Below, piece by piece: positions 7,230 through 38,400 of a DNA stretch of 43,633 nucleotides (position 1 is its first letter; every line of letters starts with the position of its first letter). A program made the translations under genes and the position numbers. The notes under the pieces are model-generated. The model had not been told where the DNA came from. It was given only the letters and a program-made list of their open reading frames with translations, and did no database searches. Source of the DNA: a virus (lineage: Duplodnaviria > Heunggongvirae > Uroviricota > Caudoviricetes); the IMG/VR virus record IMGVR_UViG_2563366881_000003; one strand, given 5' to 3'.

Positions 7230-7453
7230 TTTCGGTAGGCTTCTACGGCTTCACGAAACATCTTTTCATCGCCAATAAAAGTGGCGATAGTGAATTTAGT
7301 CTGGATAGCCATAAGTGTTTTATCCATTTTGGGGAACTCCTGGCTGATTAAGTACGTCGATGAGTCGTTTCCATCCGTCACGTAATTTACGTGTGATTCG
7401 CTCAAGTAAAGATTCGGAAGGGCAGCCAGCAACAGGCCACCCTGCAATGGCAT
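7214..7453 (-). CDS. Small hypothetical protein (79 aa, or 37 aa from internal ATG at 7327)
   Basis: ORF; internal ATG has a GGAG 9 nt upstream. Confidence 0.3.
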   Translation of the reverse strand: MPLQGGLLLAALPNLYLSESHVNYVTDGNDSSTYLISQEFPKMDKTLMAIQTKFTIATFIGDEKMFREAVEAYRKWRSK

Positions 7454-7541
7454 ATTGCATGGTGTGCTCCTTATTCATTTACACTTGAAATTGCTCCGTG
7501 TATTCACTCGTTGGAATGAATACACAGTGCTTATTCGCAGC

Positions 7542-9241: not shown

Positions 9242-9775
9242 TTACTGGCTCCGTCCATGATTTTCATGAAAGCCATATAGTGCATTGGCTTCTTTCCTTG
9301 CTTGTTTGGCATCATCTAAAAGTTTGAATGAGCCTAGGTATTTTCGTTTTCCATCCACAGTTATCGATGCAACATAAAACCCATGCTCTTTTCTTTCTTC
9401 AACACCTGTAACTCCAGTTGATGAAGATGATTTTAAAGGCATGTTTTTCATATTCTCTTTGAAAGAAACGCTTCTTAAATTGGAGATTCTGTTGTCATCC
9501 TTAACGCCGTTTATGTGATCAATCACATCAGGCCAGTAGCCATGCACGTAAAGCCATGCAAGTCTGTGAGACTTAAATTTTTTACCTCCAATATTTATTC
9601 TCAGATAACCCTTGTTGTCAGGTGAGCCAGCCTTTTTACCTGGATACTTCTTGTTCCACGTCAAGGCAGCTCTGTTATCCGCAAACAAATGCTTTGCTCT
9701 CGGCTTCCAATAAAAGTCACCACTCACAGGATTGTAATGAAGAATCTCCCTTACAGACACTTGAGTAAGATCCAC
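9242..9775 (-). CDS. HNH endonuclease with AP2-like DNA-binding domain (paralog 1)
   Basis: Motif HRLAWLYVHG...IDHINGVKDDNRISNLR, C-terminal GV(T/S)... AP2-like segment; paralogous to three other ORFs in the window. Confidence 0.8.
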   Translation of the reverse strand: MDLTQVSVREILHYNPVSGDFYWKPRAKHLFADNRAALTWNKKYPGKKAGSPDNKGYLRINIGGKKFKSHRLAWLYVHGYWPDVIDHINGVKDDNRISNLRSVSFKENMKNMPLKSSSSTGVTGVEERKEHGFYVASITVDGKRKYLGSFKLLDDAKQARKEANALYGFHENHGRSQ

Positions 9776-16459: not shown

Positions 16460-16749
16460 TGGCTAATCTACGCAAAGAAGCACGCGGCAGAGAATGCCAG
16501 GTACGTATTTACGGCGTATGCAATGGCAATCCTGAAACTACAGTTCTGGCACATTACCGGATGGCTGGAATTTGCGGAACGGGAATGAAGCCTGACGACC
16601 TGATCGGCGCATGGGCTTGTAGCGCGTGTCACGATGAAATCGACCGACGCACCTATAATCTCGACAACAAAGACGCCAGACTTTACCACCTCGAAGGCGT
16701 GATCAGGACGCAGGCGATACTGCTGAAGGAGGGGAAGATTAAGTCATGA
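16459..16749 (+). CDS. DUF1364 / YbcO-like putative zinc-binding nuclease
   Basis: 96 aa, motif ARGRECQVRIYGVCNGNPETTVLAH...CSACHDEIDRR recalled from DLP12 YbcO. Confidence 0.6.
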   Translation: MANLRKEARGRECQVRIYGVCNGNPETTVLAHYRMAGICGTGMKPDDLIGAWACSACHDEIDRRTYNLDNKDARLYHLEGVIRTQAILLKEGKIKS

Positions 16750-17270
16750 ACGGTAAAAGATATCCAACACAAAAAGAAATCAATGAATTGTATGAATATA
16801 ATAGCGAAACAGGTTTGTTTATATACAAGAGAAGAGAAAGTGTAAGAGAGTGCTGGAATTCAACATATGCCGGTAAGATTGCTGGTTCTATAGATGAAAA
16901 AGGATACGTTCGTATATCTGTAAATAAAAAAGTTTGTCGAGCTCATAGAATCGCATGGATATCCTTTTATGGAAGTGAACCTGATGGGGAAATTGACCAC
17001 ATAAATGGAGTTAAAAGCGATAACAGAATATGCAATTTGCGCGTTGTAGATGATAAACAGAACTCAAGGAACAGAAAAAAGCCTATTAATAATCGCTCTG
17101 GAGTAATGGGGGTTGCCTACTATAAGAAGAATAAAAAGTGGGGCGCATATATAAACAGTGATAATAAAAAGATATTTCTTGGATTATACGATGACATATC
17201 TCTAGCCGTTAATGCCAGAAAATTGGCGGAATCACGATTGGGGTATCACCATAATCATGGGAGAGGATAA
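16746..17270 (+). CDS. HNH endonuclease with AP2-like domain (paralog 2)
   Basis: HRIAWISFYG...IDHINGVKSDNRICNLR; inserted between the ybcO-like gene and rusA. Confidence 0.8.
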   Translation: MNGKRYPTQKEINELYEYNSETGLFIYKRRESVRECWNSTYAGKIAGSIDEKGYVRISVNKKVCRAHRIAWISFYGSEPDGEIDHINGVKSDNRICNLRVVDDKQNSRNRKKPINNRSGVMGVAYYKKNKKWGAYINSDNKKIFLGLYDDISLAVNARKLAESRLGYHHNHGRG

Positions 17271-17633: not shown

Positions 17634-17818
17634 ACGCCACAATTCAAACGATACCAGAGCTTCTTATCCAGACACGAGGCAATCAGACCGAAGTGGCGAG
17701 GATGCTTTCCTGCGCAAGAGGAACAGTGCTCAAGTACAACCGAGACAGCAAAGGTGAGCGTCACGTAATAGTTAACGGCGTCCTGATGGTCAAACAGGGC
17801 AAGAGGGGAAGACGATGA
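17630..17818 (+). CDS. ninH: NinH-like protein
   Basis: YGNQTEVARMLSCARGTVLKY matches recalled lambda NinH (YGNQTEVARRLKCSRGTVRKY). Confidence 0.75.
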   Translation: MNATIQTIPELLIQTRGNQTEVARMLSCARGTVLKYNRDSKGERHVIVNGVLMVKQGKRGRR

Positions 17819-27557: not shown

Positions 27558-28829
27558 ATGCCTAACAATCTCGATAGTAACGTCAGTCAAATCGTTCTGA
27601 AAAAATTCCTTCCGGGTTTTATGTCAGATTTAGTTCTGGCGAAAACCGTAGACCGTCAGTTGCTGGCAGGTGAAATCAACTCCAGCACTGGCGATAGCGT
27701 TAGCTTTAAACGTCCGCATCAATTCTCATCCCTCCGTACTCCCACTGGTGATATTTCAGGGCAAAATAAAAACAACCTGATATCAGGTAAAGCTACGGGG
27801 CGTGTAGGTAACTACATCACTGTTGCTGTTGAATATCAGCAACTGGAGGAAGCGATCAAGCTTAACCAACTGGAAGAAATTCTCGCGCCTGTTCGCCAGC
27901 GAATCGTTACCGACCTTGAAACAGAGCTTGCTCACTTCATGATGAATAACGGTGCGTTGTCACTTGGTAGCCCAAATACTCCAATCACCAAATGGTCTGA
28001 TGTTGCGCAGACGGCATCTTTCCTGAAAGACCTCGGCGTTAATGAAGGTGAAAACTATGCTGTAATGGATCCATGGTCTGCACAGCGACTTGCTGATGCG
28101 CAGACTGGTTTGCACGCTTCAGATCAATTGGTTCGTACTGCATGGGAGAATGCGCAGATCCCAACCAATTTTGGCGGCATTCGCGCACTGATGTCTAATG
28201 GGCTTGCCTCTCGTACGCAGGGGGCATTTGGCGGAACACTGACAGTCAAAACACAGCCAACTGTTACCTATAACGCAGTTAAAGACTCATACCAGTTCAC
28301 TGTAACATTGACCGGAGCGACAACCAGCGTTACAGGTTTCCTGAAAGCTGGTGATCAGGTTAAATTCACCAATACCTACTGGCTGCAACAGCAGACCAAA
28401 CAGGCGTTGTATAACGGAGCCACACCAATTAGCTTCACTGCAACGGTTACTGCTGATGCTGATTCAGACAGCAGTGGCGATGTGACGGTTACGCTTTCTG
28501 GTGTTCCGATTTATGACACTACAAACCCGCAGTACAACTCTGTAAGTCGTCAGGTAGCGGCAGGCGATGCCGTATCTGTAGTAGGCACTGCTAGCCAGAC
28601 AATGAAGCCAAACCTGTTCTATAACAAGTTCTTCTGTGGACTTGGCTCTATCCCACTGCCGAAACTGCACAGTATTGATTCTGCTGTTGCAACATATGAA
28701 GGTTTCTCCATCCGCGTACATAAATACGCAGATGGCGATGCCAACGTGCAAAAAATGCGCTTCGACTTACTGCCTGCATATGTGTGCTTTAACCCTCACA
28801 TGGGCGGTCAGTTCTTCGGTCAACCTTAG
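27558..28829 (+). CDS. Major capsid (coat) protein
   Basis: 423 aa at the coat position of a P22-like head module. Confidence 0.65.
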   Translation: MPNNLDSNVSQIVLKKFLPGFMSDLVLAKTVDRQLLAGEINSSTGDSVSFKRPHQFSSLRTPTGDISGQNKNNLISGKATGRVGNYITVAVEYQQLEEAIKLNQLEEILAPVRQRIVTDLETELAHFMMNNGALSLGSPNTPITKWSDVAQTASFLKDLGVNEGENYAVMDPWSAQRLADAQTGLHASDQLVRTAWENAQIPTNFGGIRALMSNGLASRTQGAFGGTLTVKTQPTVTYNAVKDSYQFTVTLTGATTSVTGFLKAGDQVKFTNTYWLQQQTKQALYNGATPISFTATVTADADSDSSGDVTVTLSGVPIYDTTNPQYNSVSRQVAAGDAVSVVGTASQTMKPNLFYNKFFCGLGSIPLPKLHSIDSAVATYEGFSIRVHKYADGDANVQKMRFDLLPAYVCFNPHMGGQFFGQP

Positions 28830-28836
28830 TGGAATG

Positions 28837-28858
28837 GCGGGGGTTACCCCGCCTTTTT
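28837..28858. terminator. Bidirectional hairpin terminator between coat gene and the minus-strand HNH gene
   Basis: GGCGGGGG-ttac-CCCCGCC followed by T5. Confidence 0.6.
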
Positions 28859-29350
28859 CTTGATTATTTCGCAGCAAGCATCGAATTTGTTATCGAAATA
28901 TCCCAGATGGATTGCTTTTCCGTTAGCAAATGATTTGGCGCGCCATTTGTACACGTTTTTGACCTTCACATAGTAAAGGCCAGCAATGCCGTATTTGTTA
29001 TTTTTATAAATCGAGGTTCCTTTAACTCGGTTAAGTTGATTTTGGCGACTGCTAACGATTCGCAGATTAGAGATCCTGTTATCAAGTGGGTTTCCGTTGA
29101 TGTGGTCGATTATCCCCTCAGGGTGCTCTCGATAGAAAAGCAGCCAAGCGATTCTGTGCGCCTGGTAATGCACCTTCTTGTACTGAACTTTCAGTCGGGT
29201 GTAATTGTTGCCTGCCTTGTGTTCGAAGGTGGCTACCTTACCTTTTGTCAGGTGCCTGACAGATGCGTTTATCTTGTACTTTATCTCTCCCGTGTCTGGA
29301 GAGTATTCAAACATTTCATCAGCTTGCTCAAAGGTAATCATGTTATTCAC
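28844..29350 (-). CDS. HNH endonuclease with AP2-like domain (paralog 4), antisense within the head operon
   Basis: HRIAWLLFYR...IDHINGNPLDNRISNLR. Confidence 0.8.
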   Translation of the reverse strand: MNNMITFEQADEMFEYSPDTGEIKYKINASVRHLTKGKVATFEHKAGNNYTRLKVQYKKVHYQAHRIAWLLFYREHPEGIIDHINGNPLDNRISNLRIVSSRQNQLNRVKGTSIYKNNKYGIAGLYYVKVKNVYKWRAKSFANGKAIHLGYFDNKFDACCEIIKKKAG

Positions 29351-29395
29351 CGAATGACAAAGGAACCTCCCTCATTATATATCAATGGTGATTTT

Positions 29396-29587
29396 ATGTC
29401 AGATAACAGAATGAGTATTTTCCTTGCCGCAGATAACGAATCCGGGCATGTACAGGCCGTTATCACAGAAAAAGACTTCCAGTTTTTCGAAAAGTTGGGC
29501 TTTGTTGCCTCAGTTGATGAATTGAAACCGACCAGTAAGCGAGGTCGTAAGGCGGCAGACAATGGCAACAGTACTGACAAAGGGTGA
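29396..29587 (+). CDS. Small hypothetical protein, 63 aa
   Basis: Internal Met of ORF 29036..29587 downstream of the HNH gene start. Confidence 0.35.
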   Translation: MSDNRMSIFLAADNESGHVQAVITEKDFQFFEKLGFVASVDELKPTSKRGRKAADNGNSTDKG

Positions 29588-30044
29588 GATCGTCCTTTTT
29601 GCGCTTCGTAAGTTTGCTATTGCTTCTAACGCATCGCTGACTGATGTTGAGCCGCAATCAATTGAAGATGGTGTAAATGATCTGGAAGATATGATGTCCG
29701 AGTGGATGATTAACCCCGGCGACATTGGTTACGCTTTCGCAACTGGAGATGATCAGCCATTACCAGATGATGAGTCAGGTCTTCCAAGAAAATACAAACA
29801 CGCAGTAGGCTATCAGTTATTGCTGAGAATGCTATCTGATTACAGCCTTGAACCAACTCAGCAAGTTCTCAGTAACGCCCAACGCTCATATGATGCCTTG
29901 ATGACCGACACTCTGGTTGTTCCTTCAATACGACGACGTGGAGATTTTCCTGTAGGACAGGGTAATAAATATGACGTGTTCACATCTGACCGATATTATC
30001 CAGGCGATCTCCCTCTGATTGATGGCGATATCCCAAACGCATAG
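29562..30044 (+). CDS. Head completion / tail accessory protein, P22 gp4-like
   Basis: TKGEIVLFALRKFAIASNASLTDVEPQSIEDGVNDLEDMMSEW matches recalled P22 gp4 N-terminus. Confidence 0.8.
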   Translation: MATVLTKGEIVLFALRKFAIASNASLTDVEPQSIEDGVNDLEDMMSEWMINPGDIGYAFATGDDQPLPDDESGLPRKYKHAVGYQLLLRMLSDYSLEPTQQVLSNAQRSYDALMTDTLVVPSIRRRGDFPVGQGNKYDVFTSDRYYPGDLPLIDGDIPNA

Positions 30045-38093: not shown

Positions 38094-38145
38094 TTGACAT
38101 GATAGAAGCAGTCTACTATATTCTCAATAGGTCCACCGTGGACCT
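38094..38145. promoter_or_regulatory. Pant/Pmnt control region: Pant TTGACA-17-TATATT, Oarc at 38099-38119, Omnt palindrome AGGTCCACCGTGGACCT at 38129-38145
   Basis: Oarc and Omnt match recalled P22 operators (one central change in each). Confidence 0.8.
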
Positions 38146-38323: not shown

Positions 38324-38324
38324 A

Positions 38325-38400
38325 GTTGAAGCCCCAACTGCGGGAACAGTCAGGGCTTCTGTTGTCAGTAAATCCGTGGAGAAAAACCAACATGAATAGT
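38325..38400 (-). ncRNA. sar-like antisense RNA covering the ant ribosome-binding region (candidate)
   Basis: Arc-ant intercistronic hairpin GAAGCCC...GGGCTTC at 38330-38361; P22 has sar here. Confidence 0.35.

Follow-up and report, generated by a model that had tools for sequence, protein, structure and literature searches.

An antisense HNH_3 endonuclease gene at the coat-hkbT junction of a P22-like prophage: a probable self-promoted homing cassette

Why should an HNH endonuclease gene be present on the minus strand inside the late structural operon of a P22-like phage, and by what process did it get there? The sequence analyzed is the IMG/VR virus record IMGVR_UViG_2563366881_000003, a stretch of 43,633 nucleotides that is here termed the window. 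It represents a P22-like (Lederbergvirus) genome with morphogenesis genes that are about 98–99% identical to those of HK620 and Sf6. The segment from coat to gp4 is 100% identical to that of a prophage in the E. coli draft assembly GCA_000351005.1. The genes at the locus are as follows.

27558..28829, plus strand: coat (major capsid) gene of the Sf6/HK620 type (Pfam P22_CoatProtein, 5.7e-142)
28844-29341, minus strand: HNH_3 endonuclease gene, 165 aa; N-terminal and HNH part similar to I-HmuI, putative AP2-like fold at the C-terminus
29396-29587, plus strand: hkbT / Sf6 gp6 / P22 orf69-like open reading frame, 63 aa (PHROG 3251, 2.5e-41)
29562-30044, plus strand: gp4 head-completion / tail accessory gene (Pfam P22_Tail-4, 9.7e-74)

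A preliminary description placed a minus-strand HNH gene between coat and gp4, antisense within the late structural operon. The open reading frame at 28844..29350 (minus strand, 168 aa in its full extent from a GTG) and its plus-strand neighbors agree with this. The gene, the fourth HNH_3 paralog of the window, is termed HNH4 below. It lies between coat and gp4 yet does not abut gp4, because the 63-aa hkbT-like open reading frame intervenes and overlaps the gp4 start by 26 nt. HNH4 is intergenic, i.e. it is found between the coat stop and the hkbT start, and the flanking open reading frames are intact. Translation probably begins at the ATG at 29341, for a product of 165 aa; gene callers in public data choose this start as well. 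The stop codon, TAA at 28844-28846, is located inside the loop of the coat terminator hairpin. A search of the locus for Rfam introns, other RNA families and tRNAs found none.

Public gene calls for the hkbT-like open reading frame differ, both on the plus strand: 29354-29587 (77 aa) and 29396-29587 (63 aa). The 77-aa call begins within the HNH4 promoter/leader region and has no Shine-Dalgarno sequence. The hkbT frame is open on the plus strand from 29036 on, through the antisense of HNH4.

The HNH4 protein displays the Pfam HNH_3 domain (E = 8.5e-16; 57.8 bits against a curated cut-off of 24.8) and matches PHROG 99, annotated as HNH endonuclease (4.6e-47). A PDB sequence search gives a sole match, I-HmuI (1u3e, E 0.002), and the model of the protein resembles I-HmuI plus an AP2 domain, which is a fold similar to that of the solved member. 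I-HmuI, the intron-encoded HNH homing endonuclease of Bacillus phage SPO1 (PDB 1u3e), is among the closest known systems. No variation is seen among 44 homologs at D79, H80, N92, R94 and N104, which can be aligned with the core of I-HmuI, and the catalytic D-H...N...N residues are intact. The dN/dS ratio is 0.12–0.16 in homologs of 60–70% identity and about 0.1, calculated from few differences, among near-identical copies (0.09–0.16 overall). At these ratios the protein is maintained under purifying selection. HNH4 is likely to be an active endonuclease. By analogy with I-HmuI and T4 MobE it may nick rather than cut DNA; both of these HNH enzymes are nickases and still drive homing (PMC2790892).

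HNH_3 + AP2 phage endonucleases (PHROG 99), e.g. Xanthomonas phage Xp10 17R and many Salmonella and Klebsiella siphovirus proteins annotated as HNH homing endonucleases, belong to the same broad family. They display 37–43% identity to HNH4 over about 90% of its length and have the same domain order. Unlike the wider family, the HNH4 subfamily (five clusters at 60–100% identity) has a shorter C-terminal helix that ends in K-K-[KR]-x-G. This end is encoded by the coat terminator, and members of the subfamily occur in association with the 3′ ends of P22-type coat genes. Members of the wider family are mostly co-oriented with their neighbors (51 of 71 loci in a crude strand survey); the same crude survey finds a gene antisense to both flanks at only 6 of the 71 loci, that of the window included.

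The signals that bear on transcription of the locus are the following.

28836..28863, plus strand: intrinsic terminator of the coat transcript, a 7-bp GC stem with a 4-nt loop (28836-28853), then a T-run
29347..29351, minus strand: GGTGA Shine-Dalgarno sequence of HNH4, read from the sequence, 5 nt upstream of the ATG at 29341
29358..29371, minus strand: leader or initial-transcribed motif GGGAGGTTCCTTTG, family pattern G[CA]GG.A..TTCCTT
29402..29374, minus strand: sigma-70-type promoter of HNH4, -35 CTGACA (29402-29397), 17-nt spacer, -10 TATAAT (29379-29374)
17815-18333: Q gene

It had been proposed that a gene so placed would probably need a promoter of its own, and the sequence agrees. The CTGACA-17-TATAAT site matches the sigma-70 consensus at 11 of 12 positions, and its location is kept in homologs of 60–70% identity, where the aligned -35 hexamers are TTGCAA, TTGCTG and TTGCAG and the -10 hexamers are TAGATT, TATATT, TATTAT and TATAGT. 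Three 11/12 sites are found on the two strands of the 43.6-kb window, compared with 0.8 expected. The other two are where pR' and Pant are expected, one at 18311-18340 right after Q, and one at 38094-38122 (plus strand) in the immI region. HNH4 appears to be self-promoted, and since the -35 element overlaps hkbT codons 1–3, its promoter would fire head-on into the late operon.

The motif directly after the -10 element is present in five of five members of the HNH4 subfamily (the window, L020, L024, L026 and L261) and is unique within the window. Possible roles are those of a GC-rich discriminator, a conserved leader or an operator. A leader hairpin that would sequester the HNH4 start codon was considered and rejected, as the fold is no better than that of shuffled sequences (z = -0.29). 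A perfect inverted repeat of 11 nt also links the leader (29359-29369) with the coding region (29013-29023). RNA pairing within the HNH4 mRNA by means of this repeat was rejected: about 0.05 such repeats are expected by chance, but the repeat is conserved in no homolog and is probably a chance occurrence. Elsewhere in the window, Rfam detects sar RNA, the immI antisense RNA, at 38324-38391 (minus strand), near the Pant-like promoter, and the lambda cIII thermoregulator element at 7415-7473 (minus strand).

The hairpin at the coat end, GGCGGGG-GTTA-CCCCGCC, had been described as a bidirectional terminator that abuts HNH4, and this is not upheld. The same hairpin folds on either strand (about -17 kcal/mol), but only on the plus strand is it followed by a T-run, TTTTTCTTGATTATTT. 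The sequence after it on the minus strand is ATTCCACTAAGG, which has no U-run. By its sequence the hairpin is thus the terminator of the coat transcript, and it is not bidirectional. The minus-strand complement of this terminator encodes the HNH4 C-terminus, KKKAG, together with the stop codon. A terminator belonging to HNH4 itself was not found in the window, where the hairpin lacks a T-run in the HNH4 direction; two distant homologs have T-richer tails past the hairpin in that direction. Since no U-run is present after the hairpin on the minus strand, the HNH4 transcript may run on antisense into coat.

Comparison of the junction with those of P22, Sf6 and HK620 shows that HNH4 is part of an insertion that all three lack.

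28821..29410: segment inserted or replaced relative to HK620/Sf6, about 590 bp in place of about 60 bp (from alignment)

The coat gene of the window is 99% identical to that of HK620/Sf6 as far as position 28820. The last three codons, CAA CCT TAG at 28821-28829, are associated with the cassette and change an N to Q. The ancestral piece of about 60 bp consists of AAT CCG TAA, a hairpin, a ribosome-binding site and then ATGGATCGC. At the other end, the ribosome-binding site and approximately the first five codons of hkbT come from the cassette, which gives MSDNRMSI compared with the ancestral MDRMSV. No terminal inverted repeats and no target duplications were found at the cassette boundaries, and a transposon-like insertion is rejected.

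The insertion is rare. In addition to HK620, Sf6 and P22, nine other sequenced phages lack an HNH gene at this junction, as do all of the 242 prophages in complete E. coli genomes that have a coat-hkbT junction. In IMG/VR, 324 coat loci of the Sf6 type were found; 80 of these were retrieved, and none of the 80 has an HNH homolog directly downstream of coat. Only one HNH+ contig is present in IMG/VR. A scan of species-representative genomes gave no copy of the cassette. A subfamily profile search of JGI metagenomes and IMG/VR gave only copies of 99–100% identity and homologs of 58% identity or less (best aligned segment), with no further close full-length members of the subfamily. An empty site with flanks of the HNH+ type was also sought in IMG/VR, and none was found. 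As P22, Sf6 and HK620 are without HNH4, the gene is not a constant feature of this junction among the relatives.

The two allele types are distinct. All HNH+ alleles share CAACCTTAG, the different hairpin and ATGTCAGATAACAGAATGAGTATT, whereas AAYCCRTAA, GGGGCTTCGGCCCC and the hkbT start ATGGATCGCATGAG are common to all HNH-less alleles. The cassette has thus exchanged the ancestral hairpin for one of different sequence. This hkbT start is conserved at the nucleotide level in HNH-less relatives (L030-L109, L001, L002 and L028). The 52 distinct HNH-less junctions are conserved although their coding flanks vary at synonymous sites.

A stem-loop is annotated at the same place in the HNH-less phages HK620 (tGP5), Sf6 (t coat) and P22, and in the 52 distinct HNH-less junctions the coat terminator is a nearly invariant GGGGC-UUCG-GCCCC followed by a T-run. 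Since a terminator already stands in the HNH-less junctions, transcription from coat to gp4 already relied on read-through there, presumably by Q-modified polymerase. A terminator at this place is ancestral. The main effects of the insertion on the late transcript would be about 530 nt of extra non-coding sense RNA, the changed ribosome-binding site and N-terminus of hkbT, and the head-on promoter.

A block of about 615 bp of the window (approximately 28809-29425) recurs at 98–100% identity in two divergent prophage lineages (L003 and L005), whereas their flanking genes are only 65–85% identical to those of the window. Between the window and these divergent lineages, dS is 0.02–0.03 for HNH4, 1.5–1.6 for coat and 1.1 for scaffold, and it is saturated for gp4 and gp10. 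In another carrier (L004), a coat gene of the window type is joined across the cassette to hkbT and gp4 of the L003 type. At least 45 blocks of a public collection encode the identical 165-aa protein, always at the coat-hkbT junction, and the prophages that carry it differ in their needle, gp14 and gp7 alleles. NCBI annotates the protein as HNH endonuclease in both E. coli and Salmonella enterica. All known copies of the cassette are in bacterial assemblies, i.e. they are in prophages. These sequence comparisons show that the cassette has moved recently between lineages with saturated flanks, always at the same junction. Such an identity pattern is the classical mark of homing or, at the least, of targeted gene conversion that took place repeatedly.

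An association with P22-type coat genes is also seen in more distant relatives. The next-closest protein clusters (P0002–P0005, 60–70% aa identity) were found on metagenomic contigs that belong to another type of phage, where the far neighbors are a 98-aa open reading frame and a Phage_gp49_66 gene and not hkbT and gp4. In four of four of these loci the HNH gene lies tail-to-tail directly behind a P22-type coat gene that ends in ...NPHM.GQFFG.., and in every case the HNH stop codon (TAA, TAG, TAA and TGA) is within the loop of the GC hairpin after coat. Here again, it is the complement of the coat terminator, T-run and stem, that codes for the conserved K-K-[KR]-x-G end of the protein.

The explanation that best fits these observations, and one we hold to be probable, is that HNH4 is a self-promoted, free-standing homing endonuclease cassette (HNH_3, I-HmuI-like, with a putative AP2-type DNA-binding tail). 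The enzyme would nick or cut the HNH-less allele within the junction of about 75 bp that is formed by the AAYCCRTAA coat end, the GGGGC-UUCG-GCCCC hairpin and the hkbT start. With an HNH+ copy in a co-resident prophage or a co-infecting phage as template, repair would then bring in the cassette and, along with it, a few donor bases from its flanks. The donor bases CAACCTTAG, the new hairpin and ATGTCAGATAACAGAATGAGTATT would render the HNH+ allele immune; as judged from the comparison of alleles only, immunity would follow because the conserved stretch of the junction has been replaced. Given a promoter of its own and an orientation opposed to the late operon, HNH4 is probably expressed while that operon is silent, i.e. 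in the prophage or early in infection. Late in infection, head-on Q-antiterminated transcription and pairing of sense and antisense RNAs would damp its expression.

Several points temper the homing explanation. Ordinary homologous recombination could move the flanked cassette without any nuclease, since P22-like genomes are highly mosaic in any case. The rarity of the cassette, in less than 1% of relatives, seems unlike a strongly driving element at equilibrium and would fit a recent invasion. The antisense placement counts against the explanation, as this is a minority arrangement in the HNH_3 family (about 6 of 71 loci, crude survey).

Free-standing HNH homing and nicking enzymes, T4 MobE among others, provide the framework for this explanation (PMC2790892). 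Both T4 mobE and HNH4 are intergenic HNH genes beside a conserved essential gene, with presence/absence polymorphism and co-inherited flank polymorphisms. Both must fit the transcription program of the phage, and in both the transcript structure at a terminator is involved. T4 mobE, however, is promoterless and co-oriented, needs upstream transcription and has an internal terminator (PMC2790892), whereas HNH4 has its own near-consensus sigma-70 promoter, is antisense, shares the hairpin of its neighbor and has its stop codon in the loop. In addition, HNH4 resides in a temperate prophage and T4 mobE in a virulent phage.

The layout also recalls the morons of Juhala and Hendrix, which are promoter-gene-terminator units between the late genes of lambdoid prophages. 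Like these, HNH4 is an extra gene between genes of the late operon, with its own sigma-70 promoter and beside a terminator, and because of this moron-like arrangement it could be expressed from a repressed prophage. Unlike in morons, the cargo is a nuclease of the homing type and not a host-fitness factor, and the terminator belongs to coat and has no T-run in the HNH4 direction. Other P22-like phages have acquired homing genes: SEN22 has a homing endonuclease between terminase and portal (PMC5261728), and the epsilon34 gene 31 fusion is a second case (PMC2629481). Thus P22-like genomes, including their morphogenesis cluster, do acquire HNH/homing genes; however, these cases differ from HNH4 in junction, gene lineage and orientation.

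A first alternative, compatible with homing, is that HNH4 is a weapon, produced constitutively by the prophage, that cuts and excludes HNH-less P22-like competitors, whether superinfecting or co-resident, with homing as a by-product. The promoter does not depend on the late operon and comes as close to consensus as the pR'-like and Pant-like ones, every known copy of the cassette is in a prophage, the junction that would be its target hardly varies among 52 distinct relatives, and four HNH paralogs are present in one prophage. A selfish homing gene would need the same architecture anyway, however, and the rarity of the cassette among relatives argues against a strong benefit. A role as a weapon is on balance unlikely.

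The notion can be carried further, as a speculation to which we also assign a small likelihood. HNH4 would be specialized for P22-type coat genes, at their 3′ end and terminator, and a repressed prophage would express it from its own strong promoter to cut the HNH-less junctions of incoming or co-resident relatives, thereby excluding competitors and converting them to HNH+. Head-on late transcription and the shared hairpin would act as an off-switch, and the leader motif could be an autoregulatory operator. A precedent for autoregulation is I-TevI, which autoregulates at its own promoter.

Somewhat less likely still is that the cassette is a passive passenger, perhaps inactive as a site-specific enzyme, and spreads by ordinary recombination at the conserved coat end and hkbT start. 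Short conserved sequences do flank it, and the L004 prophage switches parentage at several points that are unrelated to the cassette. On the other hand, the identical block is very short (about 615 bp) and has sharp edges on both sides in independent lineages, and the dS of HNH4 is 50-fold below that of the flanks. Purifying selection and intact catalytic residues over 60–100% divergence also speak against a passenger, as does a position behind coat genes that is kept in an unrelated phage type.

The possibility raised in the preliminary description, that the insert is regulatory, now seems very improbable. On this view the coat-to-gp4 transcript ratio, or the translation of hkbT and gp4, would be set by its antisense transcript or by the convergent promoter. 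The promoter does oppose late transcription head-on and overlaps the start of hkbT, the cassette does alter the ribosome-binding site and N-terminus of hkbT, and the transcript may enter coat antisense for lack of a minus-strand T-run. However, more than 99% of relatives assemble virions without the insert, HNH-less phages already have a terminator at the junction, and purifying selection acts on the protein itself and not merely on the RNA.

The presence of an HNH protein within the morphogenesis cluster also recalls packaging partners of the HK97 gp74 type that act with terminase, but such a role has a negligible likelihood and is rejected on position, orientation, family and distribution: HNH4 and the large terminase open reading frame (23107-24519) are some 4.3 kb apart, with HNH4 downstream and on the opposite strand, its family is of the HNH_3/I-HmuI type with a putative AP2 tail, and close relatives, nearly all of which are without the gene, package normally. 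P22-like phages package by headful from pac, and the pac site is annotated in P22.

No prior description of an HNH element at the coat-hkbT junction was found in the searchable literature. Homing endonuclease genes in phage structural modules are already well known, and no general principle is changed by this case. What is uncommon here is the antisense layout, the promoter of its own, the stop codon in the terminator loop of a neighbor and the tidy evolutionary footprint. If the enzyme is active, homing among temperate phages and prophages of E. coli and Salmonella could be studied at this locus in a simple natural setting; both carriers and empty sites (HK620 and Sf6) are at hand, and the candidate target is only about 75 bp. 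The locus is also relevant to annotation and phage engineering, as the insert alters both the ribosome-binding site and the start of the hkbT-like gene, which overlaps gp4 and is called at either 63 or 77 aa.

The window contains four HNH_3 paralogs, all confirmed by Pfam, and this is unusual for a single P22-like prophage. The three others are 32–43% identical to HNH4 (tblastn) and are found at these positions.

9242-9775, minus strand: HNH_3 paralog (tblastn match 9326-9769)
16746-17270, plus strand: HNH_3 paralog (tblastn match 16767-17195), a clean insertion of about 525 bp between hkbD-like and rus genes relative to HK620
18528-19040, plus strand: HNH_3 paralog of the HNH_3 + AP2 type (tblastn match 18543-18980), just downstream of the pR'-like promoter and before the lysis genes

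As these three are co-oriented with their operons, HNH4 is the only antisense gene among the four. Other HNH-type genes are present in prophages of the Sf6 type, between gp4 and gp10 and after gp10 (L082, 4607-5191, and L109, 5875-6261, both plus strand), and these are co-oriented with the late operon. In one HNH+ contig (L006, 3580-3780), gp4 is cut to 66 aa and is joined straight to a tailspike-like gene, with the HNH gene intact; this is apparently a deleted, decaying prophage.
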